Source: a virus (Duplodnaviria > Caudoviricetes). Taken from it: DNA of 60,874 nt. A model generated the notes under the pieces. The model was not told the origin of the DNA. It saw only the letters and a program-made list of their open reading frames with translations, and did no database searches. Each line of letters opens with the position of its first letter. Positions within the stretch are counted from its first letter, which is position 1. The stretch covers positions 1 through 60,874 of the IMG/VR virus record IMGVR_UViG_3300012913_000002; one strand, written 5' to 3'. Positions 7,262 through 54,056 of this stretch are shown one piece after another. The translations under genes were made by a program, and so were the position numbers.

Positions 7262-7543
7262 ATGCTTACGCAAGTGATGATCCTGGCTGAGCCGACGCTC
7301 AGCGCGGCCGAGACCAAGAAGTCCCTGATGGGTCTGATGCTGATCGCCATCAGCCTGGTCCTGGCCTACCTCACCCTGAAGGCCCTGCTCGGCCCGGCCC
7401 AGGGTGGCGACTACAACCGCACGCTCAAGATCGGGCTCGCCAGTGTGCTGGCGATGATCCCGCTCGGGCTCGGAGCCAGCGCCGTCGTGGCGATGGGCTA
7501 CGGCGAGGCCCTGATGAAGTTCGGCATCGGGCTGATCTCCTGA
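7262..7543 (+). CDS. Small hydrophobic protein, VirB2/TcpD-like pilin candidate
   Basis: 93 aa, two long TM segments, first gene of an operon containing a VirB4-like ATPase. Confidence 0.5.
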   Translation: MLTQVMILAEPTLSAAETKKSLMGLMLIAISLVLAYLTLKALLGPAQGGDYNRTLKIGLASVLAMIPLGLGASAVVAMGYGEALMKFGIGLIS

Positions 7544-8325
7544 TGCCGACCCAGCACGCGGACGACGCCGGGCGTCAGATCCGCCAGCCGTGGCTGGGAG
7601 CCAAGGGTGCCCGGTGGCCCTGGGACTGGACCTACAGCGAGTGGGGCCTGGCGGCAGCCGCCTTCACCATCGGCGGGACTCTGCTCACCTGGGCGATCCC
7701 CTCCGTGGTGGTGGCCTTCTTCGCCATTCGCTGGCTGGCGGACCTGCTCAGCAGGGCCACCGACAACCAGAAGCGTACCTACCGGCTCGTCGTGGCCTGC
7801 CTGGTCATGCTGTGCCTGATGTACTCGCTGGACTGGAGGACGTGGGTCAGCCCCATCTTCCTGCCGGTGGCTCTGCTGCTGTCCTTCATCATCCCCTTCC
7901 GGGCGGTGAAGTTGTGGGGCCGCTACATCACCTGGAACCGGCCGATCGGCTACTGGATGCGGCTGCCGTTCCAGGTCGCTCGCGGCCCCCGGCGTAACCG
8001 GCAGCGGATCATCGACCCGACCCCGCTGGCCATGAACCTGGAAGGCCTCAGCGACGAGACCGACGAGATCAAGCCGGGCCGGATCGTGACCGTCCCCCGG
8101 CCGAAGTGGGGCACTCCTTCACCGAAGCCCCGCGCGACGGTGCAGGACAAGCCGGTCGTCAAGGCGAAGATCAGCAAGGCTCCGAAGCGCCCGGCCAAGG
8201 TGCCGATGCGTGAGCGCAGCCCGCTGAAGCCGAGCGCCACCCCGAGAAAACGCCCCCGCCTCATCGAGCGCACGCCGCAGGGCATCCGCGTCGGCAAGAC
8301 CGAGTACCGCCTGGAGGACTACTGA
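7543..8325 (+). CDS. Membrane protein, VirB3/TcpE/PrgI-like position
   Basis: Trp-rich TM N-half and Pro/Lys/Arg-rich tail; translationally coupled immediately upstream of the ATPase. Confidence 0.45.
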   Translation: MPTQHADDAGRQIRQPWLGAKGARWPWDWTYSEWGLAAAAFTIGGTLLTWAIPSVVVAFFAIRWLADLLSRATDNQKRTYRLVVACLVMLCLMYSLDWRTWVSPIFLPVALLLSFIIPFRAVKLWGRYITWNRPIGYWMRLPFQVARGPRRNRQRIIDPTPLAMNLEGLSDETDEIKPGRIVTVPRPKWGTPSPKPRATVQDKPVVKAKISKAPKRPAKVPMRERSPLKPSATPRKRPRLIERTPQGIRVGKTEYRLEDY

Positions 8326-10994
8326 TGATGGGAAAGCCCAAGAAGACGGCGCTGCCTCGCACCACCGTGCTGGCATCGAACAGCAAGGAGATGGTCCGCA
8401 ATCTGATCCTGCGCAAGGACGGGACGGTCATCGCTGGCTACCGGATCGGTGACTCCCGCTGGGATTTCACCGGCAAGGACGCGAAGACGCTGGGGATCAC
8501 CCAGAGCGCCGACGTGTACGCCAACCTGACGGGCCGCGAGTTCGAGGAGCGGGTCTCCACCCGGCCGCACCCGGTGCAGACATGGGCGGCCAACCTGGAC
8601 GCCCGCACGCCGCGTCCGGCTCCGGACATGCACACCTGCGACCTGAGCATGAGCAAGGGCGACCTGCTCAACGGCAAGTGCGGCTGCGAGACGTGGGGCG
8701 CGCACCTGCTGCGGATGCAGGACCGGATCGCCCGGACCGGCATGGACGACAAGATCACCTTCCGCTACTTCTCGCTGAAGGCCCAGATGAACCCCCGGGC
8801 CGACCTGCACAAGCAGGTGAACGAGTACCTCGCCAACGGCAAGGCGTCCAAGGCGCTTCAGGCCGTGATCGAGGACGAGAAGCGCGTGCAGGACGTGGTG
8901 AAGGACTGGCCGGGCTCTCGCCGGATGAGCGAGTACGAGCAGGGCTGGCTGCGGGTGCGCTCGCTGTCGCCCGGCGTCCAGCCGACCGGCGTGCGCGCTG
9001 TCGGCCGCAACGGCTGGGACGAGATGGCCCTGCCGTCGCTGGGCAGCGACACCCGCTGGGAGGAGACGCCTTTCGGGCGGACCGTCAAGGTCACCTCCTT
9101 CAACGAGGGCAGGCAGACCGAGACCGCCGTGCGTGTGCTGTCACTGGCCCGCTGCGGCGACCTGCACTACCCGGAGAACGGGTTGCCGCCGTGGCAGGTG
9201 CTGTCCGAGTCGGCCGTCGACTCCAACGGCGTGCCCTTCTCCGTCGAATGGTCCATCAAGGGAAGGCTTCTCAGCGGCGAGGAACTGACCGCTCAGGTGG
9301 AGTTCGAGTTGCGCCGGGCTCAGTACATCCGGCGCGACTACGAGGAGCATGAGGAACTCCCCCCCACCGCCGTCGACAAGGCGATCGAGGTGGCCACCAA
9401 CACCCGCGACCAGGTGACGACCGGCCAGCAGGCCGACGCCGCCCGGTTCCTGGGCCAGGTGAACGTGATCATCACCGGTCAGGCGACGGCATCGCTCACC
9501 GCTGAGCAGGTGGTGGAGGAGCGCTGCGCCGCCTTCATCCGGATGTACGCGGGCAACGGTCTGCGGATGGACTTCGCCGGGGCCGACAGCCAGTCGTTCA
9601 TGCTGACCAGCACCGTGCCGGGCGAGCCTTACGACACGGTCGGCTACCAGCGCCGCCTGCGGCTGCCGTACCTGGCGGCCGGGATGCCCAGCGTCACCAG
9701 CAGTGTCGGCGACCAGCGTGGCCCGTACCTTGGTCACACCTCCGGTGCCAGCCGTCGTCCGGTGATGCATGACCCGCACTACGCCACCGAGGGCAAGAAG
9801 ACCGGCCGCGACGTCAACATGCACATCGCTGTCGGCACGCTCGGGTCCGGCAAGTCGGTCCTGTTCGGCTCGGTCTCCTACAACGCCGCACGCCGGGGCA
9901 TCAGAACGATCATCTCCGACCCGTCCGGTCCGCTGGCTGATCTGACGAAAATGCCTGAACTGGAAGGAGTCTCGCAGGAGATCAACCTGCTGAACGGTCG
10001 CAAGGGCATCCTGAGCCCGGCCAGTCTCATCCCCAACCCGGTTCGCGCCGACTACGAGGACGAGCAGGGCGGCTGGGCCGACGCCATCGAGCAGGTGCGG
10101 GCCGAGCGCCGGGAACTGACGATCGACATGGCCCTGCGCTGCCTGCCCGAAGACCTGGTGGCCGAAGGCAGCACCAACGCCGCCCGCACTCGCAACGTGC
10201 TGCGGCTGGCGGGTCGCCGCCACGGTGAACTGGCCAGTTGGGAGACCAGCACCACGTTCTGGGACCTGATCGAGCACCTGAAGACCTTGAAGGACGAGCA
10301 CGCCGACGCGGTGGCCGGTGCACTGGTGGACGCCAGCACTGCGCCGCTGCTGCGGCTGCTGTTCCCGGTGCCGGGCACCGAGGTCGCTACCGGCCACTAC
10401 GACAAGACCCTCACCGTGATCACCACCCCGGGGATCACGCGGGCTGTCGACGGCACGCCGCGCGCCGACTGGAACCCCACCGAGATCGGTGCCGACGCAG
10501 TGCTGCGGCTGACCGGCATGTTCACCAACCGGCTGATCTACTCGAAGGAGCGTGGCGAGCGCTGCGTGGCGATGTTCGACGAGGCTGAGTCGCTGACCGA
10601 CTTCGGGCCGGGCCGCTCCATGTTCTCGCGGCTGGGCCGGGACCACTCGAAGTGGAACATCGGTGTCTACATGGCCGTGAAACACATCAACTCGCAGATG
10701 CTTTCGGGTGAATTGAAGAACTTTCTCGCGTCGGTGTTCGTCGGCAAGATGGCCAAGGCCGAACCGGCGTACGACGCGCTGAAGTTGCTGGGCCTCAACG
10801 ACGAGCGGTACGTGAAGACCCTGCTGGCCCTGTCGGCGCACACTCCCGGCGAGTTCGTGCACGCCGACGTGGACGGCCGGATCGGTTCCCTGCGGGTCGA
10901 CGTGGACTACCACCCGGCCCTGAAGGCTGTCCTGCTGACCGACCCGACCCCTGAGGGCTCCAGCCACTGGGCTCTCGAAGAGGAGAGCATCTGA
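8325..10994 (+). CDS. virB4: VirB4-like conjugative transfer ATPase (AAA_10 type)
   Basis: 889 aa; Walker A GTLGSGKS past mid-protein, IISDPSGPL, Walker B VAMFDEAE, RDHSKWN and a C-terminal GEF..DVDGRIG, as in actinobacterial VirB4/ConE-like proteins. Confidence 0.8.
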   Translation: MMGKPKKTALPRTTVLASNSKEMVRNLILRKDGTVIAGYRIGDSRWDFTGKDAKTLGITQSADVYANLTGREFEERVSTRPHPVQTWAANLDARTPRPAPDMHTCDLSMSKGDLLNGKCGCETWGAHLLRMQDRIARTGMDDKITFRYFSLKAQMNPRADLHKQVNEYLANGKASKALQAVIEDEKRVQDVVKDWPGSRRMSEYEQGWLRVRSLSPGVQPTGVRAVGRNGWDEMALPSLGSDTRWEETPFGRTVKVTSFNEGRQTETAVRVLSLARCGDLHYPENGLPPWQVLSESAVDSNGVPFSVEWSIKGRLLSGEELTAQVEFELRRAQYIRRDYEEHEELPPTAVDKAIEVATNTRDQVTTGQQADAARFLGQVNVIITGQATASLTAEQVVEERCAAFIRMYAGNGLRMDFAGADSQSFMLTSTVPGEPYDTVGYQRRLRLPYLAAGMPSVTSSVGDQRGPYLGHTSGASRRPVMHDPHYATEGKKTGRDVNMHIAVGTLGSGKSVLFGSVSYNAARRGIRTIISDPSGPLADLTKMPELEGVSQEINLLNGRKGILSPASLIPNPVRADYEDEQGGWADAIEQVRAERRELTIDMALRCLPEDLVAEGSTNAARTRNVLRLAGRRHGELASWETSTTFWDLIEHLKTLKDEHADAVAGALVDASTAPLLRLLFPVPGTEVATGHYDKTLTVITTPGITRAVDGTPRADWNPTEIGADAVLRLTGMFTNRLIYSKERGERCVAMFDEAESLTDFGPGRSMFSRLGRDHSKWNIGVYMAVKHINSQMLSGELKNFLASVFVGKMAKAEPAYDALKLLGLNDERYVKTLLALSAHTPGEFVHADVDGRIGSLRVDVDYHPALKAVLLTDPTPEGSSHWALEEESI

Positions 10995-12781
10995 TGGCCA
11001 AGCACAAGGGGAACGCCCCTCGTTATGCGGCGCTGGTTCTGGTTCTTGTCCTGGCCGGGCTCCTGATCGGCATCTCCTTCGCCAGCCAGGCCAAGGCTGC
11101 CGCGCCGGAGGCTGGGAACATCCCCGGCGTCGAACTGTGTGACCCGGATGCGCCTTTCGCGCTGACTCCGGAGTCGGGTGTGGCTGGCCTGCTGGGTGAG
11201 CGGCCGAAGAAGATCACCACGGACAACAGCCCGGATCACATCTGGTCCACCGGGGGATTCGCGGGCCTGAAGTCGTACACCTACGACCTCGGCTGCAACC
11301 CGAAGGACTGGTTCCGGAACGCGAACGCCAATGGCGGGTCGGCATTCTCGAACCTGGTGATGTCGACCGGTGACGCGATGGTGTCGCTGGCGGACTCCAC
11401 CGACCGGCGTGCCTGGTCGCCGACCTGGGTGCTGTCGTTCCTGGACGACTTCGCCGAGCGGGCGATGGGGATGTCGAACACCCTGCTGATCGTGCCTTAC
11501 CTGGGGATCTCGCTGGCGGCTGTGACGATCCTGATGCTGCTGCGGGCGAAGGAGGGGGACATCAGCGCCCAGGCCAAGAGCACCGGCTGGATCATGGTGG
11601 TGCTGATGATCACCTCTGGCCTGCTGCTGTTCCCGATGATCACGGCCAAGGCTGGCAACCGGGTCGGCTACGAGTCGGTTGCGGTACTGAACGGCGGCGA
11701 CAACCCCTCGGACGCCATCACCAACCAGGTGGTGAAGAACGTCCAGTACCAGGGGTGGCTGCGGCGCAACTTCGGTGACGACACCGTCGCTGCCGAGAAG
11801 TACGGCCCGGCGCTGCTTTCCACGATCCGTGTCTCCTGGGCCGAGATGGACGCCATCGAGAAGAAACCGAAGAAGGATCGGGCGAAGGCTCGCGCTGCCC
11901 TGACGAACAAGAAGTCCGACCAGTTCAAGGGCATCGCCGCCGAGATCAAGAAGAACCACAAGAACGCCTACCGGCACCTGACCGGCGAGATCCAGGTGGG
12001 GCCGGTCGAGACCATCGTCGAGACGCTGTTCGTGGCGATGGCCTGCGTCCTGCGGATCGCCATCTCGATCCTCATGATCGCCTGTGTGATCAGCCTGACG
12101 ACCCTGGCGATCTTCTGGGTGGTGCTGACCCCGGTGCTGATCCTGCCGGAGACGAAGCGGTTCTCCGGTCAGCGGGTCGGCATGGGCCTGGTCAGTAACA
12201 GTTTCCTCACCGTGCGGTACGTGCTCGAAGCAGCCGTTGGCTCCTGGTTTTTCGGTCTGTACCTCCAGGCGTGCATGGCTCCGGGCCTGAACCTGTGGTG
12301 GTCGCTGCTGCTGCTGGTGCTCGGCACCATCGTGGCATGGCTGACGATCGCACCGTTCAAGAAACTGAAGTCGATCCTCAGTCTCGGCCGCGCGGACGGC
12401 ACCTCGTACATGGCCAAGGTCGCCAAGATGGCGATGGCCACCTACGCACCGATGGTGAGCGGTGCCGTCGCGGCCTGGCGGGTCAACAAGCACACCGACG
12501 ACAAGGCGGAGGAGGCCGAGGAGAAGTTGTCCGAGAACCGGCCGCAACCGCAGATCGTCGAGGCGAAGATCTTCAACCCCGGCGAAAGCCCGGACATGTG
12601 GTCGCACACCGAGCACCACCCCTTCGCCGACCGGGTGCTGCCTACGGGCGGGCCGCAGCCGTTGCCCGCCCGGCCGCTGTACCAGCGGGGCGACTCGGCA
12701 CCGCCTCCCCCGGAAGACCGCAAGGAAAGCCCTTACCAGCCCTATGAGCGCACTGACGACAACGAAGGAGCCCGGACATGA
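10994..12781 (+). CDS. VirB6/TcpH-like polytopic membrane protein
   Basis: Signal/TM N-terminus, extracytoplasmic region, about 6-7 TM segments, Pro-rich cytoplasmic tail; coupled to the virB4 stop. Confidence 0.65.
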   Translation: MAKHKGNAPRYAALVLVLVLAGLLIGISFASQAKAAAPEAGNIPGVELCDPDAPFALTPESGVAGLLGERPKKITTDNSPDHIWSTGGFAGLKSYTYDLGCNPKDWFRNANANGGSAFSNLVMSTGDAMVSLADSTDRRAWSPTWVLSFLDDFAERAMGMSNTLLIVPYLGISLAAVTILMLLRAKEGDISAQAKSTGWIMVVLMITSGLLLFPMITAKAGNRVGYESVAVLNGGDNPSDAITNQVVKNVQYQGWLRRNFGDDTVAAEKYGPALLSTIRVSWAEMDAIEKKPKKDRAKARAALTNKKSDQFKGIAAEIKKNHKNAYRHLTGEIQVGPVETIVETLFVAMACVLRIAISILMIACVISLTTLAIFWVVLTPVLILPETKRFSGQRVGMGLVSNSFLTVRYVLEAAVGSWFFGLYLQACMAPGLNLWWSLLLLVLGTIVAWLTIAPFKKLKSILSLGRADGTSYMAKVAKMAMATYAPMVSGAVAAWRVNKHTDDKAEEAEEKLSENRPQPQIVEAKIFNPGESPDMWSHTEHHPFADRVLPTGGPQPLPARPLYQRGDSAPPPPEDRKESPYQPYERTDDNEGART

Positions 12782-13284
12782 AGGAATGGATCTTCGACAG
12801 CCCGGAGAGGATGAAACTGGTGGCCATCGGGCTGGCAGTGCTGTCCGTGGTGCTGATGGTCGCCCTGACCCTGAACCGGGTGGCCGGAAGCGGCGGCGGG
12901 CGGGACATGGCTCCGGCCCCGGTGGTGTCCGACGAGCCGTACACCGGCCCCACGGACCTTGTGCCGCCGTCTCCGGCCCCGGAAGGAGCCTCCCCTACTC
13001 CTGACTACGGCAGCAGCGCCGGGATCGCCCTGGAGGCCGTCAACGCCTTCCTGCTGAACGACAGCACCCGGTTCGCCGAACTGGCACAGCCGGAAGCGGT
13101 CGAGGGAATCAACGAGGCACCGGCCCGGCCAGCAGGGCAGGAAGTCACCGGCCGGGTCAAGACCCTGCTGCCCGGCCCCACCCGTCAGCAGGTGCTGGTG
13201 CCCACCACGGACGGCGACCTGGTGCTGGACATGGTGGTCATCGACGGCGCGTGGAAGGTCATGAGCATCGAGTACGCACGATGA
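12778..13284 (+). CDS. VirB8/TcpC-like bitopic membrane protein
   Basis: Single TM, Pro-rich linker, NTF2-like C-terminus ending ...DGAWKVMSIEY. Confidence 0.5.
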   Translation: MKEWIFDSPERMKLVAIGLAVLSVVLMVALTLNRVAGSGGGRDMAPAPVVSDEPYTGPTDLVPPSPAPEGASPTPDYGSSAGIALEAVNAFLLNDSTRFAELAQPEAVEGINEAPARPAGQEVTGRVKTLLPGPTRQQVLVPTTDGDLVLDMVVIDGAWKVMSIEYAR

Positions 13285-13463
13285 GCGGCCGGATGATCGC
13301 CAGCGCGATCTTCTACCTGGTGCTCGGCGTCATCATGCTCGTCCGGTCGGCAATCCTGCTCGTGGAGCCGGGTTTTCAGATCGACTCCACCCTGCTCGTC
13401 ATGGCTGGTTGCTCCTGGTTCCTCTGGGGAATCCACTTGATGATCAAGGAGATCACCCGATGA
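13281..13463 (+). CDS. Small two-TM membrane protein
   Basis: ATGA overlap with the previous stop; hydrophobic, 60 aa. Confidence 0.5.
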   Translation: MSGRMIASAIFYLVLGVIMLVRSAILLVEPGFQIDSTLLVMAGCSWFLWGIHLMIKEITR

Positions 13464-13549
13464 GCGCGGCCGAATGGACAGTCGTCATCATCTCCTCAGC
13501 CATCGGGGTGCTCATCGTCCTGATCTACGACAAGGCGGTCCGCCGATGA
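13460..13549 (+). CDS. 29-aa single-TM peptide (MSAAEWTVVIISSAIGVLIVLIYDKAVRR)
   Basis: ATGA overlaps at both ends; below the ORF-track length cutoff. Confidence 0.5.
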   Translation: MSAAEWTVVIISSAIGVLIVLIYDKAVRR

Positions 13550-14532
13550 ACAACGCGGGCAAGGTCGCAGGGGCATTCGCAGCAGTGGCCGGGCTCGCGG
13601 CGGCACCGCTGATGCTGATGTCCGTGCTCTACTCCGGCCCTCCGCAGGCCAGCCTGGACGCTGAACTGACGCAGTGCACCGTCTCCGCCGTCATCAAGCC
13701 AGCCGGAGCGCTTCTGGGGGCCAAGGACATCGGCGCGCTGGCCTACAACACCGGCTGGCGTGGCGAGGACGTGGACATCGCGGTGGCTGTCGCGCGGGCG
13801 GAGTCCGGCTGGAACCCCAGGGCCACCAACAAGAACAGCAACGGCTCCGTGGACTACGGCCTGTTCCAGATCAACTCGATCCACGCAGCGATCCTGGCCG
13901 GTGGCAACTGGGCCGACCCGGAGGACAACGCGAAGATGGCCTTCAAGGTCTGGGAGGACGCGGGCGGCAAGTGGGGACCGTGGGTCACCTACTGGTCCGG
14001 CACGTACAAGAAATTCCTGAAGGAAGACGTGGTTTCGCCGACGTGCCGCCAGCCGATCGCACCGATCGAGGCGAAAGGTGCCTGCGGGCCGGTGAAGAAG
14101 GGCTACCCGAACGGGCAGATCCCCCGCTCGGCCCTCTGCTCGCTGTGGGCCAACCGCAACCACTACCTCCGAGGGGATGCGGCGGCGAAGTTCGACGCGC
14201 TGTCGAAGGCCTTCGCGGCCGAATTCGGTGTGGCACCATGCATGACCGACTCCTACCGCTCGTACGCCGCTCAGGTGGACGTGCGACGGAGGAAGGGGCC
14301 GGGTATGACCGCCGACCCCGGCACCAGCAACCACGGATGGGGGATGGCCCTGGACCTGTGCGCTCCTGGCACCCAGGACAATCCGAAGCCGTGGCCGGGC
14401 TCTGAGCGGTATGAGGTGTGGATGTACCAGAATTTCGACAAGTATGGCTGGACTCATCCAAAATGGGCCAGGACTGGCGGATCTCGCCCCGAGCGGTGGC
14501 ACTACGAGTGCAACTCGTGTGGTGCGAAGTGA
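13546..14532 (+). CDS. Bifunctional cell-wall hydrolase: SLT lytic transglycosylase + M15 (VanY-like) peptidase; VirB1/CwlT analogue
   Basis: N-terminal TM; AVARAESGWNPRATN...DYGLFQINS (SLT); DSYRSY..Q, PGTSNHGWGMALD, ERWHYE (M15). Confidence 0.85.
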   Translation: MNNAGKVAGAFAAVAGLAAAPLMLMSVLYSGPPQASLDAELTQCTVSAVIKPAGALLGAKDIGALAYNTGWRGEDVDIAVAVARAESGWNPRATNKNSNGSVDYGLFQINSIHAAILAGGNWADPEDNAKMAFKVWEDAGGKWGPWVTYWSGTYKKFLKEDVVSPTCRQPIAPIEAKGACGPVKKGYPNGQIPRSALCSLWANRNHYLRGDAAAKFDALSKAFAAEFGVAPCMTDSYRSYAAQVDVRRRKGPGMTADPGTSNHGWGMALDLCAPGTQDNPKPWPGSERYEVWMYQNFDKYGWTHPKWARTGGSRPERWHYECNSCGAK

Positions 14533-22128: not shown

Positions 22129-22201
22129 AATGAGACCAACGACAGAAGAGTTGCAGCGCCTCAATCAGCAGGCGTTCGACATGACACAAGGAGGCCCAAT
22201 C

Positions 22202-23269
22202 ATGGGATACGGGAACCGCAGTAACGGTCTGACGCCCAAGCCGGTGCAGAACCAGATCGACCACATCGCCATCGTGATCGACGCCAGCAGTTCGATGAAC
22301 CGCTTGCAGGGCGCGGTGATCCGGGTGGTCGACAACCAGATCGCTTACCTGGCGCGGCGTTCCAAGGAACTGAACCGTGAGGTCCGGGTGTCGGTCTACA
22401 CGTTCGACACCATCGTGGAGTGCCGGATCTTCGACAAGGACGTCCTGCGCCTGCCGTCGATCGCCGACTTCTACCGGCCCAACGGCATGACCGCGCTGGT
22501 GGACGCCACCATCAAGAGTCAGGAGGATCTCGCCACCACCTCCACGATCTACGGCGACCATGCCTTCCTCACGTTCGTGGTGACGGACGGCCAGGAGAAC
22601 CGCTCCAGCCGCACCCCGGGCGCGTTGCGGCGGATTTTCGAGACCCAGCCGGAGAACTACACGGTGGCGATCCTCGTGCCCGACCACCAGTCGGCCGACG
22701 AGGCTGCCCGCTGGGGCTTTCCGCAGGACAACATCCGCCCGTGGGACGCCACCTCCGTGGCAGGTGTCGAGGCCGCTGGCAGCACCATCAACACCGCCAC
22801 CGAGAACTTCTTCTCCGGCCGGGCCAAGGGCCAGCGTGGCTCCCGCGCGATCTTCTCCACTGGCACCGACACGGTGAACGCCGCCACGGTGAAGTCGACG
22901 CTGACTCCGCTGGCTTTCGACAAGTACCGGCTGATCCCGGTGATGCCCGAGGGCGTCACGAAGGACACCAAGGTCCGTGTCGACAACTTCATCAAGAACG
23001 ACTGTGGGATGAAGTTCGAGTTGGGCAAGGTCTACTACCAGTGGAACAAGCGGGAGAAGGTCCAGCCGCAGAAGCGCCTCGCGGTCGTGGAGAAGAAGAC
23101 GGACAAGGTGTACGTCGGCACGCAGGACGAGGTCCGCGCGATGATCGGTCTGCCGGACATGACGGTCAGCCAGAAGGCTGACCCCAACCCGGATTTCGAC
23201 ATCTTCGTGCAGTCGACGGCCCCGAACCGGAACCTGGTGCCGTACACCAAGGTCCTGGTGATGGTGTGA
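22202..23269 (+). CDS. von Willebrand factor A (vWA) domain protein
   Basis: MIDAS motif IVIDASSSM, GMTALVDA, VVTDGQEN; AGGAGG RBS before ATG 22202. Confidence 0.85.
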   Translation: MGYGNRSNGLTPKPVQNQIDHIAIVIDASSSMNRLQGAVIRVVDNQIAYLARRSKELNREVRVSVYTFDTIVECRIFDKDVLRLPSIADFYRPNGMTALVDATIKSQEDLATTSTIYGDHAFLTFVVTDGQENRSSRTPGALRRIFETQPENYTVAILVPDHQSADEAARWGFPQDNIRPWDATSVAGVEAAGSTINTATENFFSGRAKGQRGSRAIFSTGTDTVNAATVKSTLTPLAFDKYRLIPVMPEGVTKDTKVRVDNFIKNDCGMKFELGKVYYQWNKREKVQPQKRLAVVEKKTDKVYVGTQDEVRAMIGLPDMTVSQKADPNPDFDIFVQSTAPNRNLVPYTKVLVMV

Positions 23270-28652: not shown

Positions 28653-29194
28653 ACGCTCGCGCGGGAGTCGTTTCGGCGCAGGTGGCCTGGGGCATCAGCC
28701 TGCCGGTGACCGCAGCGGCTCCCACGCTGGAACTGAGCATCAAGGGAGCGGTGGCCGGGTTCCTGGTCGCCGCTCTCGCTTCGTTCATGCCGGACCTGGA
28801 TCACCCGAAGTCGACGGCCGGTCGGTACGTGCCGGACTGGGGCCGGGCATTGCTGGGCGGGCATCGGATGCTGACCCACTCGATCCTCTCGATCATCGTC
28901 GCTCACTGGCTGACCGGATACCTGATCGGTAACCCGATCGTGGCGAACGCGGTGGCGGTCGGCTGGGGTGTGCATGTGGCCATCGACATGCTGACACCAC
29001 AGGGTGTTGGCTTGTTATATCCCCTGTCCAGGCGTAGGTTCGGGCTGGGGTGGATCACAACAGGTTCCAAGGCTGAAGACCGGTTCGTCACCGGTATGAA
29101 GGTGCTGGGAATCAGTGTCGCCATCCTCTACGGATACCTGCTCTTTCCCGGAGGACATGAATGGCCACTGATGCAACATCCCCCCTTCGCATGA
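28649..29194 (+). CDS. Membrane-bound metal-dependent hydrolase (YdjM/LexA-binding family)
   Basis: MPDLDHPKS, GHRMLTHS, HVAIDMLTPQGV. Confidence 0.8.
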   Translation: MNARAGVVSAQVAWGISLPVTAAAPTLELSIKGAVAGFLVAALASFMPDLDHPKSTAGRYVPDWGRALLGGHRMLTHSILSIIVAHWLTGYLIGNPIVANAVAVGWGVHVAIDMLTPQGVGLLYPLSRRRFGLGWITTGSKAEDRFVTGMKVLGISVAILYGYLLFPGGHEWPLMQHPPFA

Positions 29195-29982
29195 CCGAAG
29201 ACACCATGCAGAACATCATTCGCGCCTGCCGCACCCAAATCCCCGCCGAGGCGTGTGGTTTCGTGGTTGCCGAGAAGGAAAACCCGACGATGGGCAACAG
29301 CATCCGGATGATGCCGAACGTCCATGAGAATCCTCTGCGCAACTACCTGATGGATGACGAGCAGGTGCGGACCGCCTACGCCGAGTTCGACCGGCTGGAG
29401 CAGGAGCCGATTGCCGTCTATCACAGCCACCCCGTCAGCGAGGCGCTGATGAGCGACCTCGATCGGGAGCGGGCGGCCGACGCATCGCTGGCCTACCTGA
29501 TCATCTCCTTCCAGGGCGGCCGGACGAAGGCGCGCGCCTTCCGGGTGCGACATTGGATCGGCAACACCGTCCCCTACGACGTCCCGATCCAGGTGCAGGG
29601 CAAGGTTTCGCAGGTCGAGAAGATCCCGCGCGGGCCGTGGGCACTGCTGGCCGGAAACTACGTGCGGATCTCGTACCAGCGCACCGGCAAGACCGCGTTG
29701 TCGATCTGTGTCGCACGGGTGCTCGACTGCGACGGCGACGTGGTGCGCCTCGACCCCGACCACAAGACCGCCGCCCGGATGATCCCGCTGGAGCGCATCC
29801 GTTCCGTGCACGTCCTGTCCGAGGGGGCCGGGGCGGCTGCGGTGCGCGAGCGGCTGCGGGTGCTGGCGGCCGACGCCAGAACTCTGCTGGCCTCGACGAA
29901 CGTCGGTGCCGTACCGTCGATGCTGGAAACGCTTCACCAGGCTTTCCCTGCGGGGATCAGCATCACGATGGAAGAGAAATGA
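29161..29982 (+). CDS. JAB/MPN+ (JAMM, M67) metalloprotease with C-terminal extension
   Basis: EACG...YHSHPVSEALMSDLD = E...HxHx7SxxD. Confidence 0.85.
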   Translation: MATDATSPLRMTEDTMQNIIRACRTQIPAEACGFVVAEKENPTMGNSIRMMPNVHENPLRNYLMDDEQVRTAYAEFDRLEQEPIAVYHSHPVSEALMSDLDRERAADASLAYLIISFQGGRTKARAFRVRHWIGNTVPYDVPIQVQGKVSQVEKIPRGPWALLAGNYVRISYQRTGKTALSICVARVLDCDGDVVRLDPDHKTAARMIPLERIRSVHVLSEGAGAAAVRERLRVLAADARTLLASTNVGAVPSMLETLHQAFPAGISITMEEK

Positions 29983-37106: not shown

Positions 37107-38774
37107 TCATGCTGTGATCAACTCCTTGAACTCGTCGGGCAGTTTCGTGCGGGGCATTCCGAGGCGCAGGAGGGTGGTCCAGTCCTCGGCGGTGTTCTCC
37201 TCCTTGTTGTCGGCCGGGTCCGGAGTCCAGTAGGCCTGTATCTCCTCGGCGATGCCATTGTCGATCTGAAGTGTGGTGCGGCCTTTCAGATCCTCCGGGA
37301 TGTCCCGGCCAATGGAGGAGTTGCCGAACACCATCTTGGCGGCGTCGGCGGTGATGCCGCCGACCGCCGCACGTCCCTGGAGGTTGTCCCGGGCCGCTCC
37401 ACCGAACCAGGATGCGTCCGGGCGCTGGGTGCCGATGATCAGGTGGATGCCGCACAGCCGGGCCATGGCCAGCACGCGCATGATCTTGCGGTGAGCCGGG
37501 GAGAACTTCCCGCTCTGCTTGTACGGCTTGCCGTCCTCGTCCCGGGCATCCCCGGCCCAGTAGTCAAGCATCCGGTACACCCACTCCTCGAACTCATCGA
37601 GGATGACGATCCGCCTGCGGTGAGCACTGAAGGGGATCTTCTTGTGCTTGCGCAGTCGGTAGCGATTCATCATGTCCTCGTACAGATCGAAGGCCATGTC
37701 CCAGAGTTCGTCATCCTCAGAGTAGATCCCGAGCACTCCATCCCAGCCCTCAAACCCCAGCAGTTCCACCAGTTTCGGGTCAGCGAGCATCAACTCGGTG
37801 CCCTTGTCCTTCCTGGCCGTGTCAATCGCAGCGCAGACCAGGGAGCGCATCAGGGCGGTCTTGCCAGCGTTCGTCCGGCCAATGATCAGGATGTGACTGG
37901 TGACGTTGAGGTTGAAGTGGTGGCCGGGTGCTACCGGAAGAATGTTCCAGGGCCGGTCCGGGTCGAAGCCAGGGTGGTGAATCTTGTCAGGCAACTGCGG
38001 ACGCCGGGTGAAGCGCACCATGTCATTCTTGGTGTCCCACACCGGCATCCAGCGGTCGCCGAGTTTCGCCTGGATCTTCAGCAGGGCCTCGTACTGCTTG
38101 TCGTCCTTGTGGTCCTCGAAGCCGGTTCCCTTGTAGAAGACGCTGAAGCCGTCCATGCCCACGACGTCGCACACGTTGACCTGCCCGGCATTGCCGACCA
38201 GTTCCCGGAATGCCTCCTCGATCCGCTCAGTGTCGAGTTCGGGTTCGGCTGGTTGGTCGGGCTCTGCCTTCGGAGCCGATTCTGTCGGAATGACTCTCCG
38301 GGGGCGGCGGCGTCTCCAGCCTTTCTGGACCAAATAAGTGCCGAATGCCGCGCCGATGGACAAGCCCGACCACTGCAACCAGTCCATGGCTTCTGCATGG
38401 TCCTGCCGGAACACCTCCTGCCAGGTGTAGCCCGAGAGCATGATCGTGCCGGAGGCGTAGGTGAAGAAGGGTTTCCAGTTACGCGGCACACGGTTTCGCC
38501 GGGCGCGAGCCTGAGCCTCCTTGCGGGTCTTCTTCTTGTGGCAGGAGTTGATCCAGGTGGAACCCTTCGGCGCACACAGTAACTGGAGGTTCGCAGGATC
38601 GCTGCGCTGCTCGGGAGTACTCTCCACCTCCGGCACGATGTGGTCGATCTGGAGAGCGTTGCGCACGAAGTACTTCCGGCATCCGTCGCACTGGAACTTG
38701 CTGGGATGCCTCGGGTCCTGGCGAGCGTCGAAGATCGCCGTGCGGACCTGCGGATCAATCTTGGTCAGGCTCAC
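37107..38774 (-). CDS. HNH nuclease - TM - FtsK/SpoIIIE ATPase fusion (TcpA/TraB-like DNA translocase)
   Basis: CDGC...IDHIVP...NLQLLC...CHKKKT (HNH); two hydrophobic segments; HILIIGRTNAGKT, LADPK..EL, IVILDEF, ARLCGIHLIIGTQRPDA (FtsK). Confidence 0.85.
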   Translation of the reverse strand: MSLTKIDPQVRTAIFDARQDPRHPSKFQCDGCRKYFVRNALQIDHIVPEVESTPEQRSDPANLQLLCAPKGSTWINSCHKKKTRKEAQARARRNRVPRNWKPFFTYASGTIMLSGYTWQEVFRQDHAEAMDWLQWSGLSIGAAFGTYLVQKGWRRRRPRRVIPTESAPKAEPDQPAEPELDTERIEEAFRELVGNAGQVNVCDVVGMDGFSVFYKGTGFEDHKDDKQYEALLKIQAKLGDRWMPVWDTKNDMVRFTRRPQLPDKIHHPGFDPDRPWNILPVAPGHHFNLNVTSHILIIGRTNAGKTALMRSLVCAAIDTARKDKGTELMLADPKLVELLGFEGWDGVLGIYSEDDELWDMAFDLYEDMMNRYRLRKHKKIPFSAHRRRIVILDEFEEWVYRMLDYWAGDARDEDGKPYKQSGKFSPAHRKIMRVLAMARLCGIHLIIGTQRPDASWFGGAARDNLQGRAAVGGITADAAKMVFGNSSIGRDIPEDLKGRTTLQIDNGIAEEIQAYWTPDPADNKEENTAEDWTTLLRLGMPRTKLPDEFKELITA

Positions 38775-39742
38775 TTCTTCTCCTCATCCTCAACCTCGAA
38801 AGCCCACAGGCAGAGCCGGAACATGGCGTAGGAGAGCCCCGTGCTGACGGCGGCGAACTGGAATCCGGCCGTCCAGTAGAAGTCATCCAGGGTGACGCGC
38901 CCCCTTGGCCTCGGTGAGGGATTCTGCGGCCCGCTCGTTGTTGGCGATGAAGGCGCAGTCCTTCTCCCAGGTGATGCCGGTCTCCTGGAAGACGTGGTCG
39001 ACGCACCGGTCAGTATCGCCCTCGAAGACCTTGTGGTCGGAACGGTAGACCGCGCCCCAGCCATCGAATGACCGGATGGTGTACGAGGTGGCGTAGTTGG
39101 CCATCAGGGGATCACCTTTCCCTTCGGGTCGACGCAGTTCGTGTAATTCACGATCCGGCCGCCCTTCTCGTTGCATTCGGTGTTGTTGCCCTGGACGAAA
39201 ACCGCCGTCAGGCAACCGGTCACGATCAGGAGGATCATCACCACCACGATCTTGTGGTCGAGCGAGATCTTCTCGTTCACTCCCGGCCCTCCACGGCCTT
39301 CGTGGCACGTCCCAGGGCCTCGGCCTTCGCCTTGGTGGCTTCGTGGGCGCTGCGCCGGGTCCTGCCGATCTCCTGCGCAACAGCGATGAACGCCAGCGCA
39401 CTGAAGAAGATCAGCACGAACAGAATGAAAGCGGTCTGGTACTGGGTCATTCCGAACATCAGGGCTGCCTCCGTTGGTGGGCTGTCTTGTGTCCGCCACG
39501 CTTGGCGAACTTGGCTGTCTTCTCGATGAATTCGGCCAGGAGCGCGTCCATCTCGTCCGCGTCCGGGTCACGGTAGGGCTCGTCACGGACTGGCAGATAC
39601 TCGTCATCCACCATGCCTGCTGGCACCCGGCGCGTCTCCAGCAGTCCGTCGTTGAGCGCGAGCCGCTCCCGGGCGGCGATGGCCCGGGAGCGGACGGTGC
39701 GGATCTGCTCCAGCGCGTTGCTGGTGTCGCGGCTGCGGTCGG

Positions 39743-40237
39743 TCACTTGCGGCGTCCGCTGGACGAGGACTTGAAGGAGTTGCTGGACTTCTTGCTGGTG
39801 GAGCCGAACGAGTTCTCGCCGCCGCCACTCTTGACCGTGGTGGACTTGCGGGCGTCCTGGTTGTTCTTGATCGGTACGCCAGCCTGCTTGCCGGGGTTGT
39901 AGATGTTGACCGGCTTCGCGGTGCGGATCTTGCTGCTGCCCTGGAAGCGAACCTTCTGGCCCTCCGGTGCGGCGTACGATCCGCCAGCGACCTTGTGGCC
40001 GGGCTTGAAGGAACTCTTGTGGCTCTTGTGGTAGCCCAGCGGCACGAAGTACCAGGAACCGTGGCCCTCGTAGTCGTCGTCATCGGGGTCGCACTGGTCG
40101 TCCTCGTCGTACGGCTCGCCGGTCATCTGGTCGACGCAGACGGCCTCGTACTGCGGCTCCTCCTGCTGGCCACAGGCTCCCAGGCCCAGGACGAGAGCGA
40201 ACAGGGTGGGCGCGGCAACCATCGGGGTGATCTTCAT
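39743..40237 (-). CDS. Lipoprotein with 'AVCVD...C' motif and Ser/Lys-rich tail
   Basis: Lipobox LGAC; paralogue of 40348-40695. Confidence 0.65.
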   Translation of the reverse strand: MKITPMVAAPTLFALVLGLGACGQQEEPQYEAVCVDQMTGEPYDEDDQCDPDDDDYEGHGSWYFVPLGYHKSHKSSFKPGHKVAGGSYAAPEGQKVRFQGSSKIRTAKPVNIYNPGKQAGVPIKNNQDARKSTTVKSGGGENSFGSTSKKSSNSFKSSSSGRRK

Positions 40238-40347: not shown

Positions 40348-40695
40348 TCAACCTCCGATGGTGCCGGTGTGGCCCCGGCCGAATCCACCCCGGAGCACCG
40401 TGCCGCCACTCTTGCTGGCACCGCCGACCTGGGCGTAATGCCCCTTCGGCAGGGTGCTGACGTAGCCACTCGAAAGTGGCTGGCCCACGGCCGGATACGA
40501 CCGGCCGATCGGGTAGTAGACGAACCCGTGGCCGTGGTGCTCGTCGTCGCACCGATCCTCGTCCAGGCGGACCTGCGTCTGCTTGTCCACGCAGACCGCC
40601 TGATGGTCCGGCTTCGGGTCCTCACCGCAGCCGGACAGGGCCAGGGCGGCGAACGCAGCCGTCCCGGCCGCCGTTACCTTCGCACTTCTCCTCAT
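40348..40695 (-). CDS. Lipoprotein with 'AVCVD...RC' and C-terminal RGGFG motif (DUF1190/YgiB-like)
   Basis: Lipobox LSGC; HQAVCVDKQTQVRLDEDRC; RGGFG...GG end. Confidence 0.6.
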   Translation of the reverse strand: MRRSAKVTAAGTAAFAALALSGCGEDPKPDHQAVCVDKQTQVRLDEDRCDDEHHGHGFVYYPIGRSYPAVGQPLSSGYVSTLPKGHYAQVGGASKSGGTVLRGGFGRGHTGTIGG

Positions 40696-41534
40696 GCCTT
40701 CTCGTACTCCTTGTTCCATCGGCCGAGCATCGTCTGCGCGGCGGCGGGCGTGATCTCCTTGTCCATCTCGTTCTTCATCGCTCGCACAAGATCCTCGGGC
40801 GTGAAGGTCCGCTGCTTCTCCCGGGATTCGACGAACGCAGGCCAGACCGGGTGCTCGCGCGGTGGGTAGCGCTTGCGCTCCGTAGACGTCTTCTGCGGCC
40901 CCAGCGTTGCTTTCACCTTCGGACGACGCTGAACCGGGGGCGTTGGCGGAGTCCGGGGGACCGCAGGCGGCTCATGGTCCACCACCACGGTTCCGGAAGG
41001 CTTCATGTCGGCCAATAGGTGAGCCAACTCGCCGCGCCAGTCGGGGAACGCCCCGATCTCGCCCGCAGGCGCAGCCGGGGGCTTCGCAGACTCGGTGGCC
41101 GGGCTTTTCGGGAGCAGGAGGGCTGCGGTGCCGCCGAACATGAGTCCGTCGATCAGCAGGGCCGTCAGGACCGCCGTGAGCCAGTTGAGCCGCCCGTCCC
41201 AGGTGCCGATGTCGGAGTTGCGGTTGTGCATCACCACGGACACCAGGTGGATGAAGGACACGACGGCGCTGGCGGGTGCGACCACCCACAGCAGCACCGA
41301 CACGACGCGCGGACCCCACTTCGCGTCGTCCCACGGGTTGTGGTTGGCCAACTCGATCAGCAGGAACGCCGCCAGCGGCGGCAGGCCCGCGATCCCGATG
41401 TCGACCCACGTCGGGTCCGGGGAATGCAGGTAGGCGGCAGTCACGTTCCCGGCCAGGGACACCCCGAGCGCCACGAGGACGCTGACGTAGCCCCAGAACC
41501 GGCCGACGGTGGTGCGCGGGATGCGCTTGGTCAT
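40692..41534 (-). CDS. DUF2637/SpdA-like four-TM protein with C-terminal cytoplasmic domain
   Basis: VSLAGNV, GLPPLA..L.IEL, AVVSFIHL and LLIDGLM motifs; Pro-rich linker; helical C-terminus. Confidence 0.6.
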   Translation of the reverse strand: MTKRIPRTTVGRFWGYVSVLVALGVSLAGNVTAAYLHSPDPTWVDIGIAGLPPLAAFLLIELANHNPWDDAKWGPRVVSVLLWVVAPASAVVSFIHLVSVVMHNRNSDIGTWDGRLNWLTAVLTALLIDGLMFGGTAALLLPKSPATESAKPPAAPAGEIGAFPDWRGELAHLLADMKPSGTVVVDHEPPAVPRTPPTPPVQRRPKVKATLGPQKTSTERKRYPPREHPVWPAFVESREKQRTFTPEDLVRAMKNEMDKEITPAAAQTMLGRWNKEYEKA

Positions 41535-42502
41535 GTCAGCAGCCCCTGACCACGCAGGAGCCGCACGCAATCGGGGCAGAGGTTCGAGGTCTGGAGGTGC
41601 CCGGCGAAGGTGACGACTCCGTCACGGGTCATCCATTCACCGCACACGGTCCAGCGTCGGAACGCCTCGCGGGCGTGGACCACTGTCTCATTGTCGGTCC
41701 ACACGCCACGAAAATCGTTCGGCCGACGCAGATCGGTCCAGGTTGGCCTGTTCACGTCATATCCTCCGTCATCTCCCGGTAGCCCCAGAAGTCCTGGACT
41801 GCTACGACTTTCATCGGCCAGCCGACGTTCCTGGCGGCCTGGGCGGCCATCCGCTCGGCAGTCTCACGGCTGGTGAACGGCACTACCTCGTGATCGTTCA
41901 CGGTGATCCGGCCGAAGCCCTGGTGCCAGAACTTGGTCGCCTCGATGTTCGCCTCGCGGCGGCCTCGGTCGCCGCGTTTCTTCGGTAGCGGCACGTCGCC
42001 TCTTGTCAGTCTCGGTGGCTTCACAGCGGTCAAGGCACCCACGCGGGTGACCTTGATCGCCGTGATCTGGTCTCGCTTGTTCAGCATCAGTCAGCCAGGC
42101 CGACATACCAGCCGTCGCCATCGGGCATCGCAGCCGCCTTCAGGGCGGGCGCGTGCATCTCCATCCGCAGCAGGCGCAGGCCGTCGTAGGCATAGTCCTG
42201 GTCCACGAACCGGACGATCCACTGATCGCCGGTCCAGGTGGCCTCGAACGGGCGAGCCCACTCGGGGTACGGGGTCTTGCCGTCAGGATTCAGCATCGTT
42301 CTCCTCTTTCGGTGAGACAGACCATCTGCCGCGCTGATCGCGCCAGACCTCCATCGGTATGCGGGTGAAATGGTGTGCGTGGTCGGCGAACTCGTCCGCC
42401 TCGAAGTGGAACTGCATCACCACGCGCAGGCGGGGCTCGCTGGCCGGGCTCGTGGGCTGGTAACCCATGCACCAGTCCGGCCAGCGATCGGGTCCACCAA
42501 CG

Positions 42503-53762: not shown

Positions 53763-53979
53763 GGACAAGCGCCGGATCAGGGAACTGCTGGACGAGATCG
53801 AGCAGTTGTCCGGCTGGCGCGTGCGCCGGATAGACGTGTCCGGCAAGCATTCGACGATCTACCCGCCGGACGGCCAGCCGCTCATCAGCGTGCCGAACAG
53901 CCCGAGCGACTGGCGCTGGCGCAAGAATCTGAGATCGCAACTACGCAGGTGCGGCTGGACCGGCACACTGCTCGACTGA
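53752..53979 (+). CDS. HicA-like toxin / dsRBD-fold RNase
   Basis: GWRV...SGKHSTIYPPDG...ISVPNSPSDWR. Confidence 0.6.
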   Translation: MANEDKRRIRELLDEIEQLSGWRVRRIDVSGKHSTIYPPDGQPLISVPNSPSDWRWRKNLRSQLRRCGWTGTLLD

Positions 53980-54020
53980 GAGACTGGCCGGGCTCCTTCG
54001 TAGTGGTGGCGCAGGAAGCG

Positions 54021-54056
54021 CGAAAGGCCCCGACCAGAGTTGGTCGGGGCCTTTCG
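54021..54056. terminator. Bidirectional terminator
   Basis: CGAAAGGCCCCGACCA-GAGT-TGGTCGGGGCCTTTCG between convergent genes. Confidence 0.75.

Follow-up and report, generated by a model that had tools for sequence, protein, structure and literature searches.

The virus contig IMGVR_UViG_3300012913_000002 of the IMG/VR database raises the question of why a phage should carry an HNH nuclease and an FtsK-type DNA motor joined in one protein. The window analyzed here is this whole record of 60,874 nt, which is 78% complete, and the gene in question lies in a minus-strand gene string (Table 1). An initial annotation of this DNA had taken the product for an all-in-one nickase and coupling protein that serves a VirB4 operon of the same contig in an undescribed, relaxase-independent mode of DNA transfer. 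Our computational analysis leaves practically no doubt that the gene encodes a conserved phage HNH-FtsK fusion, and its motor very probably derives from a family of ATPases linked to type IV secretion systems (T4SS) of plasmids. The reading that we favor, at a probability of roughly 0.45, is that the fusion serves as the coupling-type motor in a DNA-transfer machine that the phage carries and that stems from plasmids.

An intact HNH nuclease in front of a complete FtsK-type motor

Both parts of the protein are recognized separately. The N-terminal domain matched the Pfam family HNH (PF01844) over residues 29 to 84 (E = 2.2e-7; 31.3 bits against a cutoff of 21.4), and the motor matched FtsK_SpoIIIE (PF01580) over residues 289 to 377 (E = 6.1e-9; 36.1 bits against a cutoff of 24). 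Five HNH families and an FtsK/SpoIIIE-like family (9.6e-24) were found in PHROGs, and profile searches of the PDB returned the HNH endonuclease 5h0m for the nuclease domain (E = 1.9e-4) and, level with each other, FtsK (2ius, 1.7e-16) and TcpA (6o1w, 8e-16 over residues 279 to 515) for the motor. All four HNH motifs named in the initial annotation are present, and residues C29, C32, D44, H45, N62, C67, C78, and H79 are invariant in all 24 aligned family members, which show 36 to 75% identity. The same invariance applies to G304-K305-T306 of Walker A, D393-E394 of Walker B, and T449-Q450 and P452-D453 of the TQxPD segment, so that the claim of an intact HNH domain and a complete FtsK motor held. 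The GTG start codon overlaps the TGA of a small upstream open reading frame (ORF) in the sequence GTGA, with GAGGAG a few bases upstream, and the N terminus agrees with that of the relatives (MS.TK).

AlphaFold2 (AF2) modeled the fusion with a mean predicted local distance difference test (pLDDT) score of 87.4 and a predicted template modeling (pTM) score of 0.65. The model consists of an HNH fold (residues 1 to 94), two long helices (101 to 122 and 126 to 155), a disordered linker (160 to 175), an alpha/beta domain (182 to 288), and a RecA-like motor that reaches to about residue 520. In Foldseek searches against the PDB, TcpA (6o1x, 2.3e-18) was the best match, ahead of FtsK (6t8o, 2.5e-15), over 376 to 413 columns, and a fold search of BFVD brought up nothing beyond generic FtsK-like and packaging ATPases of phages. 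The motor is followed by just 35 residues, and Pfam gave no FtsK_gamma match in the fusion at E ≤ 0.1, in agreement with the earlier remark that the gamma domain is missing. The two hydrophobic segments mentioned in the same place correspond to uncharged runs of 18 and 19 residues in the window copy; the relatives reach hydropathy values of 1.5 to 2.7 in these columns, which makes a membrane hairpin likely for the family.

These data bear on the possibility that a selfish homing HNH endonuclease inserted before an FtsK-like gene and is without function for the protein, or that the gene is a decaying remnant. HNH homing endonucleases are frequent in phages, and one relative has an intein in the same gene, which therefore attracts selfish elements. 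However, the HNH domain is in frame and N terminal in every full-length member, diverges in step with the motor (over the identity range given above), and retains every catalytic and zinc residue in all 24 sequences; furthermore, the fusion clade is one branch with additional HNH-bearing lineages around it. This explanation is already close to refuted. The intein-bearing gene (positions 9926 to 12673 of locus L018; protein P0013, 891 aa) shows matches to Hom_end and LAGLIDADG_3, and its profile match breaks after about position 301, near Walker A.

The fusion belongs to a lineage of tailed actinobacterial phages

The window encodes a tail protein (phrog_1887, 6.6e-46), an endolysin (2.6e-34), and an exonuclease according to PHROGs, as well as a Prim-Pol/D5 primase-helicase according to Pfam. 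Three related viral records contain a full-length relative of the fusion, namely, G001 (80.7 kb, 100% complete), G002 (77.9 kb with direct terminal repeats, 100% complete), and G003 (76 kb, 98% complete). G002 shares 30 syntenic ORF pairs with the window and encodes, in a stretch absent from the window, a large terminase subunit (TerL; 2e-134), a portal protein (8.8e-95), a head protease (1.3e-68), and a major head protein (4.7e-38). Its terminase is nearest to those of Arthrobacter, Mycobacterium, Gordonia, and Streptomyces phages, with at most 55% identity. Based on the tail and endolysin genes of the window and the terminase, portal, and head genes of G002, the element is therefore a tailed actinobacterial phage and neither a plasmid nor an integrative and conjugative element. 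No terminal repeat was found in the window, and megablast of its positions 1 to 25000 gave no match among phages or plasmids. Since tyrosine recombinases, serine recombinases, and ParA were not found in the window and G001 to G003, the phage looks virulent or is maintained by functions of another kind. Of two scans of genome contigs, the first was without a relative, and the second yielded one weak match and one 13.2-kb contig binned in a Mycobacteriales metagenome-assembled genome (MAG), which is only a hint at the host.

A phage HNH-FtsK protein might also be a helper in genome processing, with the HNH domain aiding the terminase or the motor resolving or segregating replicated genomes. HNH proteins assist the terminase in cos-type phages, and the best solved match of the HNH domain, 5h0m, is a phage HNH endonuclease that presumably works with the terminase. 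Furthermore, the authors of PMC11536984 consider a possible replication role for an FtsK-like protein of one Streptomyces phage. In G002, however, the fusion lies about 50 kb from TerL (2539 to 4161 versus 53844 to 55526), and the genome ends in direct terminal repeats and not in cos sites. The helix hairpin, the operon of lipoproteins and membrane proteins, and the plasmid T4SS ancestry of the motor also fit poorly with packaging, and we regard such a role as highly improbable.

The motor is closest to plasmid ATPases linked to VirB4

In a search of plasmids with the fusion, the best matches were actinobacterial (7e-37), and none of them covered the HNH part. Three plasmids served as references: pAP13 of Brevibacterium sp. 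Ap13 (NC_022590), a plasmid of Cutibacterium acnes (NZ_CP012356), and the linear plasmid of Streptomyces sp. NEAU-S7GS2 (NZ_CP029542). All three have the same order of genes for small membrane proteins, a VirB4-like protein, a polytopic protein, and a wall hydrolase, with an FtsK/SpoIIIE gene nearby. The window motor aligned with their motors at E values of 1e-35 to 1e-42 and 30 to 33% identity, including the preceding alpha/beta domain; plasmid and metagenome relatives align from about profile position 135 to 200 onward. The plasmid proteins thus resemble the fusion in motor, alpha/beta domain, and partner genes, but they are 610 to 703 aa long, lack an HNH domain, and are encoded in or beside the VirB4 operon rather than 26 kb away. 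Two of the three plasmids are typed as non-mobilizable, that is, without a recognized relaxase, and pAP13 is typed as MOBP.

GenBank phages offered only motor matches. Among the 25 matches listed, identities were 23 to 26% and E values 1e-7 to 2e-9, and of the 175 matching records (50,697 searched) none covered the HNH part or 80% of the query. With the motor profile, the three plasmid T4SS-linked proteins scored 181 to 227 bits, chromosomal FtsK 76 bits, TcpA and the Bacillus phage FtsK-like protein 59 bits each, pIJ101 Tra 51 bits, and EccC 27 bits; TraB of SLP2 reached 38.8 bits against the profiles.

Phylogenetic analysis gave a consistent picture. The 24 fusion rows of an 80-row tree came together in one branch with a Shimodaira-Hasegawa-like approximate likelihood ratio test (SH-aLRT) value of 94, and their sister group consisted of 49 FtsK-like proteins, many of which are encoded beside VirB4-like genes. 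The branch joining both groups (SH-aLRT 98) left outside TcpA/TcpB, chromosomal FtsK (from a Mycobacteriales MAG), the Bacillus phage protein, pIJ101 Tra, and EccC. A tree of 153 rows again placed the fusion clade as sister to VirB4-linked proteins with the references outside, and in both trees the FtsK-like reference from Bacillus phage Goe3 grouped with chromosomal FtsK. Both trees were built with a quick method (LG+G4 with SH-aLRT; EccC as outgroup of the 80-row tree). ORFs below 600 aa or with a profile end before position 515 and identical duplicates were omitted from the smaller tree (91 rows reduced to 80), the larger one leaves out 6 of 159 rows in which the motor stretch was not usable, and the FtsK-like proteins of Mycobacterium phages and pSVH1 TraB are missing from both. 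Relatives were sampled by similarity to the query, which favors such clustering, and the position of the references is therefore the informative part of the trees. In the trees, the motor thus groups with plasmid VirB4-linked ATPases and not with TcpA, pIJ101 Tra, or FtsK.

A T4SS-linked motor could also serve another cargo or direction, such as export of host or plasmid DNA, import of DNA, or protein transport as by EssC/EccC, with the HNH domain as an accessory. EccC/EssC structures were among the weaker matches of the motor, EccCb was among the sub-threshold matches that NCBIfam returned exclusively, and the neighboring lipoproteins and small membrane proteins belong to no family, which leaves the composition of the machine open. 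The low score of EccC relative to the plasmid proteins (27 versus 181 to 227 bits) points away from this possibility; moreover, no ESX/WXG-type component was noticed, and the family-wide nuclease domain argues for a DNA substrate. We consider it very unlikely.

Pairing of the fusion with a VirB4-type module

The VirB4-type gene string of the window lies on the plus strand directly after the lysis genes. Its VirB4-like ATPase resembles pCW3 TcpF (BLAST, 1e-13) and a Streptomyces linear-plasmid protein (29% identity over 900 aa) and reached 5.5e-86 with its plasmid counterparts. Since the only PDB profile match was the P-loop of TrwB (E = 0.0015), the VirB4 assignment rests on the Pfam family AAA_10, the similarity to TcpF, and synteny. 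The protein matched 120 plasmid records, with Streptomyces linear plasmids as best matches (27 to 29% identity over 96% of the length), and none of the 50,697 GenBank phage records. The 595-aa protein encoded downstream is 25% identical over 484 aa (E = 1e-23) to the protein following the VirB4-like ATPase on a Streptomyces plasmid, and the VanY part of the wall hydrolase is 52% identical to the M15 peptidase of the pAP13 VirB4 operon.

One fusion gene and one VirB4-like gene were present in each of the five records that are at least 78% complete, all of them relatives. In all nine fetched loci that cover the HNH part, the surrounding phage genes are those of the window. A search with the VirB4-like protein found seven viral loci, four of them in additional records, one of which is 96% complete and has an intact fusion. 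Among non-fused relatives, an iterated VirB4-like profile matched 28 of 88 loci; where at least 9 kb upstream and at least 5 kb downstream were available, a VirB4-like gene was found in 14 of 16 loci, usually 4 to 7 kb upstream. These 14 comprise 11 of 13 metagenome loci, one viral locus, and two plasmid loci picked by hand.

The absence of a coupling protein and a relaxase from the VirB4 operon, likewise stated in the initial annotation, was borne out. The fusion is the sole FtsK_SpoIIIE gene in the window, its complete relatives likewise showed no second one, and six-frame searches of the window and G001 to G003 found no VirD4 (T4SS-DNA_transf, PF02534) at E ≤ 1 and no Relaxase (PF03432), TrwC, or Rep_trans; Mob_Pre and TraI_2 were likewise absent from these four records and G008. 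A canonical relaxase was thus found neither in the window nor in four near-complete relatives, and the VirB4 pairing is complete in the five records. With TcpM and the MobC-type relaxase orf200 of phage 0305phi8-36, BLAST gave only chance matches, and a very divergent or novel relaxase may be hidden among the many genes without a family.

Predicted contact with the VirB4-like ATPase

Furthermore, we modeled the motor (residues 176 to 555; alignment of 24 rows) together with the ATPase domain of the VirB4-like protein (residues 440 to 888; alignment of 4 rows), an approach already proposed in the initial annotation. The complex scored 0.61, compared to 0.37 for the best control, and passed the controls; in the benchmark of this score, 58 of 80 solved complexes attained the mark, as did 2 of 110 mismatched pairs. 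Three runs shared at least 60% of the contacts, with a pLDDT of at least 85 for the partner. The predicted interface involves motor residues 355 to 362 and 405 to 433, including the nearly invariant W406, G422, and P426, and segments 463 to 485 and 859 to 866 of the VirB4-like protein. The model supports binding of the motor to the VirB4-like ATPase.

Comparison with known transfer systems

TcpA (PDB 6o1w to 6o1z), an FtsK-like coupling protein encoded by the Clostridium perfringens plasmid pCW3, has N-terminal membrane helices. It resembles the fusion in being its best solved fold match, in size (527 aa), and in belonging to an element with a VirB4 homologue, TcpF. In contrast to the fusion, it has no nuclease domain, is encoded directly after the relaxase TcpM on a Firmicute plasmid, and falls outside the clade in both trees. 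Because no relaxase was found, we do not file the fusion as a canonical type IV coupling protein.

Relaxase-independent transfer as such is not undescribed, contrary to the initial annotation. The available part of PMC13492992 reports dsDNA transfer without a relaxase or nickase by membrane FtsK-type motors for Streptomyces TraB (pIJ101 Tra with SpdA/SpdB), for the end-first transfer of SLP2, and for the FtsK-driven system of Enterococcus pELF2 (TraD/TraC/TraG), which was recently argued to be relaxase free with SLP2 as the model. TraB-type and pELF2 systems have small membrane partners and a wall hydrolase, as does the window system, and they illustrate the manner in which it would work; none has a fused nuclease and none is found in a tailed phage. 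The C-terminal winged helix of TraB reads clt repeats. Such a domain is lacking in the fusion, and BLAST did not detect homology to Spd proteins (pIJ101 SpdA, SpdB, and KilB; SLP2 spdB2-like) in the window. Sequence relationships are also distant, with 51 bits for pIJ101 Tra, which falls outside the fusion clade, and 39 bits for SLP2 TraB. SLP2 was rejected as a close model, as its 729-aa ATP/GTP-binding protein did not match the VirB4-like profile and its TraB scored poorly. Chromosomal FtsK/SpoIIIE consists of a multi-span N-terminal domain, a long linker, the motor, and a gamma domain; it differs by this gamma domain and its position outside the fusion and plasmid clade.

There is a precedent for such genes in phages of another host phylum. 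According to the available part of Pathria et al. 2012 (PMC3357382), the Bacillus phages 0305phi8-36 and SPO1 carry a "DNA translocation operon" with an AAA_10 ATPase and a VirB6 homologue that is non-essential in the laboratory, and the authors proposed propagation by translocation for a lytic Bacillus phage. The 0305phi8-36 operon begins with a homologue of a MobC(CloDF13)-type relaxase and, in that part of the source, has no FtsK-HNH protein; BLAST revealed no similarity to the window beyond chance. The FtsK-like proteins of actinobacteriophages and of Bacillus SPO1-like phages are phage encoded like the fusion, but they match it only over the motor (at the low identities given above for the matches listed) and lack the HNH part.

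Arguments against a role in transfer

The fusion could instead be a nuclease-translocase for conflict or host takeover whose ring reels in dsDNA that the HNH domain shreds, independently of the VirB4-like operon. It would attack the host chromosome or plasmids, for nucleotide recycling or shut-off, or else DNA that arrives at the membrane from a competing phage, for superinfection exclusion. Pairing of a translocase with a nuclease is the logic of the HerA-NurA, HerA-nuclease, and HerA-Sir2 defense pairs, and HerA complexes (8woc, 9x1m, and 4d2i) were among the weaker Foldseek matches of the fusion. PADLOC gave matches to mad8 (9.6e-11), SspH (1.5e-6), and the Septu HNH protein PtuB (0.0043), but these are weak and concern only generic P-loop or HNH cores. 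PHROGs places the motor family under host takeover, and FtsK-like genes are common in actinobacteriophages without a T4SS (52 Mycobacterium phage records); those of Streptomyces phages are noted without function in the available parts of bioRxiv 2024.02.16.580700 and PMC11536984. Among the matches listed, however, these phage proteins are far more distant from the fusion (1e-7 to 2e-9) than the plasmid T4SS-linked ATPases (7e-37), and the Bacillus phage reference lies with chromosomal FtsK outside the clade. The gene lies on the minus strand among small genes of an early type, at a distance of 26 kb from the VirB4 operon, which would suit an independent enzyme; strict pairing with a VirB4-like operon that has no other coupling ATPase would then have no reason, and the predicted contact with the VirB4-like ATPase also speaks against independence. 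Taken together, we consider this alternative, the main rival of the favored reading, rather unlikely.

Several observations weigh against a role of the fusion in DNA transfer. The gene is not part of the VirB4 operon; in the window it lies on the opposite strand among early-looking small genes, and the two are 20 to 28 kb apart in every genome, so that co-expression is not evident. The five genomes in which both co-occur are non-independent, and shared descent may explain the pairing. Three further VirB4-positive viral records contain no fusion; they decide nothing, as they are 36 to 62% complete and the genes are so far apart. With an upstream cut of at least 8.7 kb, VirB4 linkage of the non-fused loci drops to 17 of 24, counted by eye, and as many of these are near-duplicates, the counts are non-independent. 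In the complex model, both chains are P-loop ATPases, with ring assemblies solved for their families, and custom alignments were used, with 4 rows for the VirB4-like protein, so that the pass may reflect likeness of fold. The helices of the window copy are weakly hydrophobic (Kyte-Doolittle means of 0.47 and 1.02 with a 17-residue window; both below 1.3 with a 19-residue window), and a membrane hairpin is plausible for this protein. No gene for lysogeny or plasmid maintenance was found in the phage, and its benefit from conjugation-like transfer is conjecture. Viral scans for the contexts of the further HNH-bearing proteins P0084 and P0085 (see below) yielded nothing or generic HNH genes, and no fetched locus is close.

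The nuclease domain itself belongs to this list. Relaxases have HUH, Rep_trans, tyrosine-recombinase-like, or PD-(D/E)XK folds and become covalently attached to the 5' end; the N-terminal domain of the fusion is an HNH domain with none of these folds, and to our knowledge HNH is not among the relaxase classes. Of the proposed all-in-one protein, the coupling motor gains support from the plasmid sister group and the complex model, while the nickase does not. That the HNH domain provides the DNA end instead of a relaxase is unlikely, and its replacing a relaxase is speculation. In view of these points, a joint action of the fusion and the VirB4-like machine in DNA transfer, although favored here, falls somewhat short of even odds.

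HNH domains in the wider FtsK-like family

Of the 1.84 billion representatives covered by an exhaustive profile search, 23,140 proteins matched at E ≤ 0.001, and 438 of them did so at E ≤ 1e-30. In another search, 41 of 58 matches carry both HNH and FtsK_SpoIIIE in precomputed Pfam annotation. An HNH N terminus was found in 31 of the best 150 cluster representatives (50% identity), namely, in 24 of 143 new ones and 6 of 7 earlier ones, plus P0078. The calls among the new representatives were made with an HNH sub-profile, which P0078 also matched; this protein is absent from the list of the 153-row tree. New HNH-positive representatives include proteins of 595 to 975 aa, and Pfam confirmed the domain in P0084 and P0085.

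In the 153-row tree, 30 rows are HNH positive. They include 21 of the 24 rows of the core clade, where the three negatives (205 to 441 aa) are probably truncated calls, and, beyond it, a pair with gamma domains and seven rows scattered in a clade of 35; none of the 80 rows in the clade of the three plasmid proteins is positive. Parsimony requires 12 changes for the presence of HNH, of which well-supported branches force at least 5; the HNH fusion is therefore either ancient and was lost in some lineages or of more than one origin. In P0085 (950 aa) and P0100 (975 aa), HNH follows an additional Cys-rich N-terminal stretch and precedes hydrophobic helices, the motor, and a C-terminal FtsK gamma domain; such proteins in effect unite a nuclease-fused motor with a module for reading sequence. 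No description of an HNH-FtsK fusion or of an actinophage VirB4 was found in the literature, including the available part of PMC5512222, with most subscription journals outside the search.

Gene strings in the window

The fusion is the last large gene of its minus-strand string (Table 1). It is translationally coupled to the small membrane proteins encoded upstream, of which one has 60 aa and a single transmembrane (TM) segment, one has 58 aa with a TM or lipobox-like segment, one has 73 aa, and a short TM protein overlaps the fusion start. Two predicted lipoproteins and a four-TM protein are encoded further upstream, and this setting points to an envelope-associated complex. The two adjacent lipoproteins are paralogous, with a common AVCVD...DE..C motif. 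Homologs of the 292-aa protein at the head of the string lie upstream of the fusion in L001 (42%), L016 (54%), and, partially, L018, and a 29% match in L020 lies on the opposite strand. A DUF2637/SpdA-like identity was rejected for this protein, since Pfam gave no match at E ≤ 1, six-frame searches gave none in the window and only a sub-threshold 16-bit match in G003, and BLAST found no likeness to pIJ101 SpdA, SpdB, or KilB or to the spdB2-like protein of SLP2.

The 260-aa protein of the VirB4 string is kept upstream of the VirB4-like gene in six related loci; with three TM helices and a basic low-complexity tail, it is not supported as a VirB8/TcpC homologue. In G001 (L001 and L005), the fusion and the VirB4-like gene share a strand, whereas they lie on opposite strands in the window; the structural block may thus have been inverted or be permuted differently.

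Three other loci of the lineage were recorded. The Streptomyces linear plasmid SLP2 encodes, close to its left end (2423 to 3004 of that record), a hypothetical protein with 39.5% identity (E = 5e-22) to a 206-aa protein of the window (58462 to 59082, minus strand); the latter is also kept in G002. A 445-aa protein (21932 to 23269, plus strand; phrog_26613, 9.2e-84) shows 46 to 73% identity across relatives, and its location varies; its gene directly follows the fusion in G003/L021 and L019. A JAB/JAMM-domain protein (28649 to 29982, plus strand; Prok-JAB, 3.8e-13) and the preceding 181-aa protein are neighbors in all fetched relatives of the lineage.

Table 1. Positions of the fusion gene, its parts, and the two associated gene strings in the window
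Feature	Position	Strand	Remarks
HNH-two helix-FtsK-type ATPase gene	37107..38774	-	555 aa; GTG start; stop codon 37107-37109
HNH nuclease domain, residues 1-95	38490..38774	-	Cys4 zinc site C29/C32/C67/C78; DH 44-45; N62; H79
Two uncharged helices, residues 101-155	38310..38474	-	Probable membrane hairpin; Arg/Lys-rich stretches on both sides
Alpha/beta domain, residues 181-288	37911..38234	-	Common to plasmid FtsK-like relatives; AF2
FtsK/TcpA-type RecA-like motor, residues 289-520	37215..37910	-	Walker A 299-306; Walker B 393-394
C-terminal tail, residues 521-555	37110..37214	-	Two short helices, without gamma/winged-helix domain (AF2)
Four small overlapping ORFs	38771..39459	-	Directly upstream of the fusion; sequence, ORF list, hydropathy
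95-aa protein	39459..39746	-	No family; same gene string
164-aa predicted lipoprotein	39743..40237	-	Signal peptide ending LGAC; 83% in L016; no Pfam family
123-aa predicted lipoprotein	40348..40719	-	Signal peptide ending LSGC; 85% in L016; no Pfam family
292-aa four-TM membrane protein	40692..41570	-	Head of gene string; hydropathy; no Pfam match at E ≤ 1
93-aa (2-3 TM) and 260-aa (3 TM, basic C-terminal tail) membrane proteins	7262..8325	+	Directly upstream of VirB4-like gene; no family
VirB4/TcpF-like ATPase, 889 aa	8325..10994	+	Pfam AAA_10, E = 5.5e-17 over 6-361 of 362
595-aa polytopic membrane protein	10994..12781	+	VirB6/TcpH position; at least 5 TM
168-aa (1 TM) and 70-aa (2 TM) membrane proteins	12778..13463	+	Hydropathy
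Membrane-tethered wall hydrolase	13474..14532	+	SLT_3 lysozyme-like and VanY/M15 peptidase; Pfam

Proposed function and implications

Under the favored reading, uncultured actinobacterial tailed phages would have captured a VirB4-type envelope machine from plasmids. The two helices would anchor the fusion in the cytoplasmic membrane, and since both helix flanks are rich in Arg and Lys, both the nuclease domain and the motor would lie on its cytoplasmic side. On dsDNA, the motor may form a hexameric ring, like FtsK and TcpA, and dock on the VirB4-like ATPase; the 595-aa polytopic protein and the small membrane proteins would provide the channel, and the SLT-VanY hydrolase would open the wall. 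More speculatively, six membrane-proximal HNH domains would cut or nick phage DNA and thereby give the ring a free end, and replicated phage dsDNA would be pumped end first into a neighboring cell or hyphal compartment, without virion and without relaxase. It is quite unlikely, in our estimate, that these phages indeed spread their replicated dsDNA genomes into neighboring cells or hyphal compartments in this full form, with a VirB4-type channel, a cut-and-pump motor, and an HNH-made DNA end. The window system would then supply through its HNH domain the end that is given elsewhere by a relaxase or a linear-plasmid telomere, a step that we hold to be just as doubtful.

The family is small, with about 30 clusters at 50% identity in the best 150 of 1.84 billion representatives, and given its absence as a fusion from the 50,697 GenBank phage records, no isolate is at hand. 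If the fusion acted apart from the VirB4-like operon as a nuclease-translocase, it would be a compact DNA shredder tethered to the membrane, for use in conflicts of phages with their hosts or with other phages, and likewise of interest. A role in transfer, in turn, bears on the open question of how ring motors of the FtsK/TraB type get a DNA end to thread, as the nuclease would be built into the motor. If true, a tailed phage would have a second route of spread that is contact dependent and independent of virion and receptor, bypassing receptor-based resistance and extracellular decay. The boundary between phages and conjugative elements would be blurred, and the fusion would represent a new way to initiate conjugative transfer.

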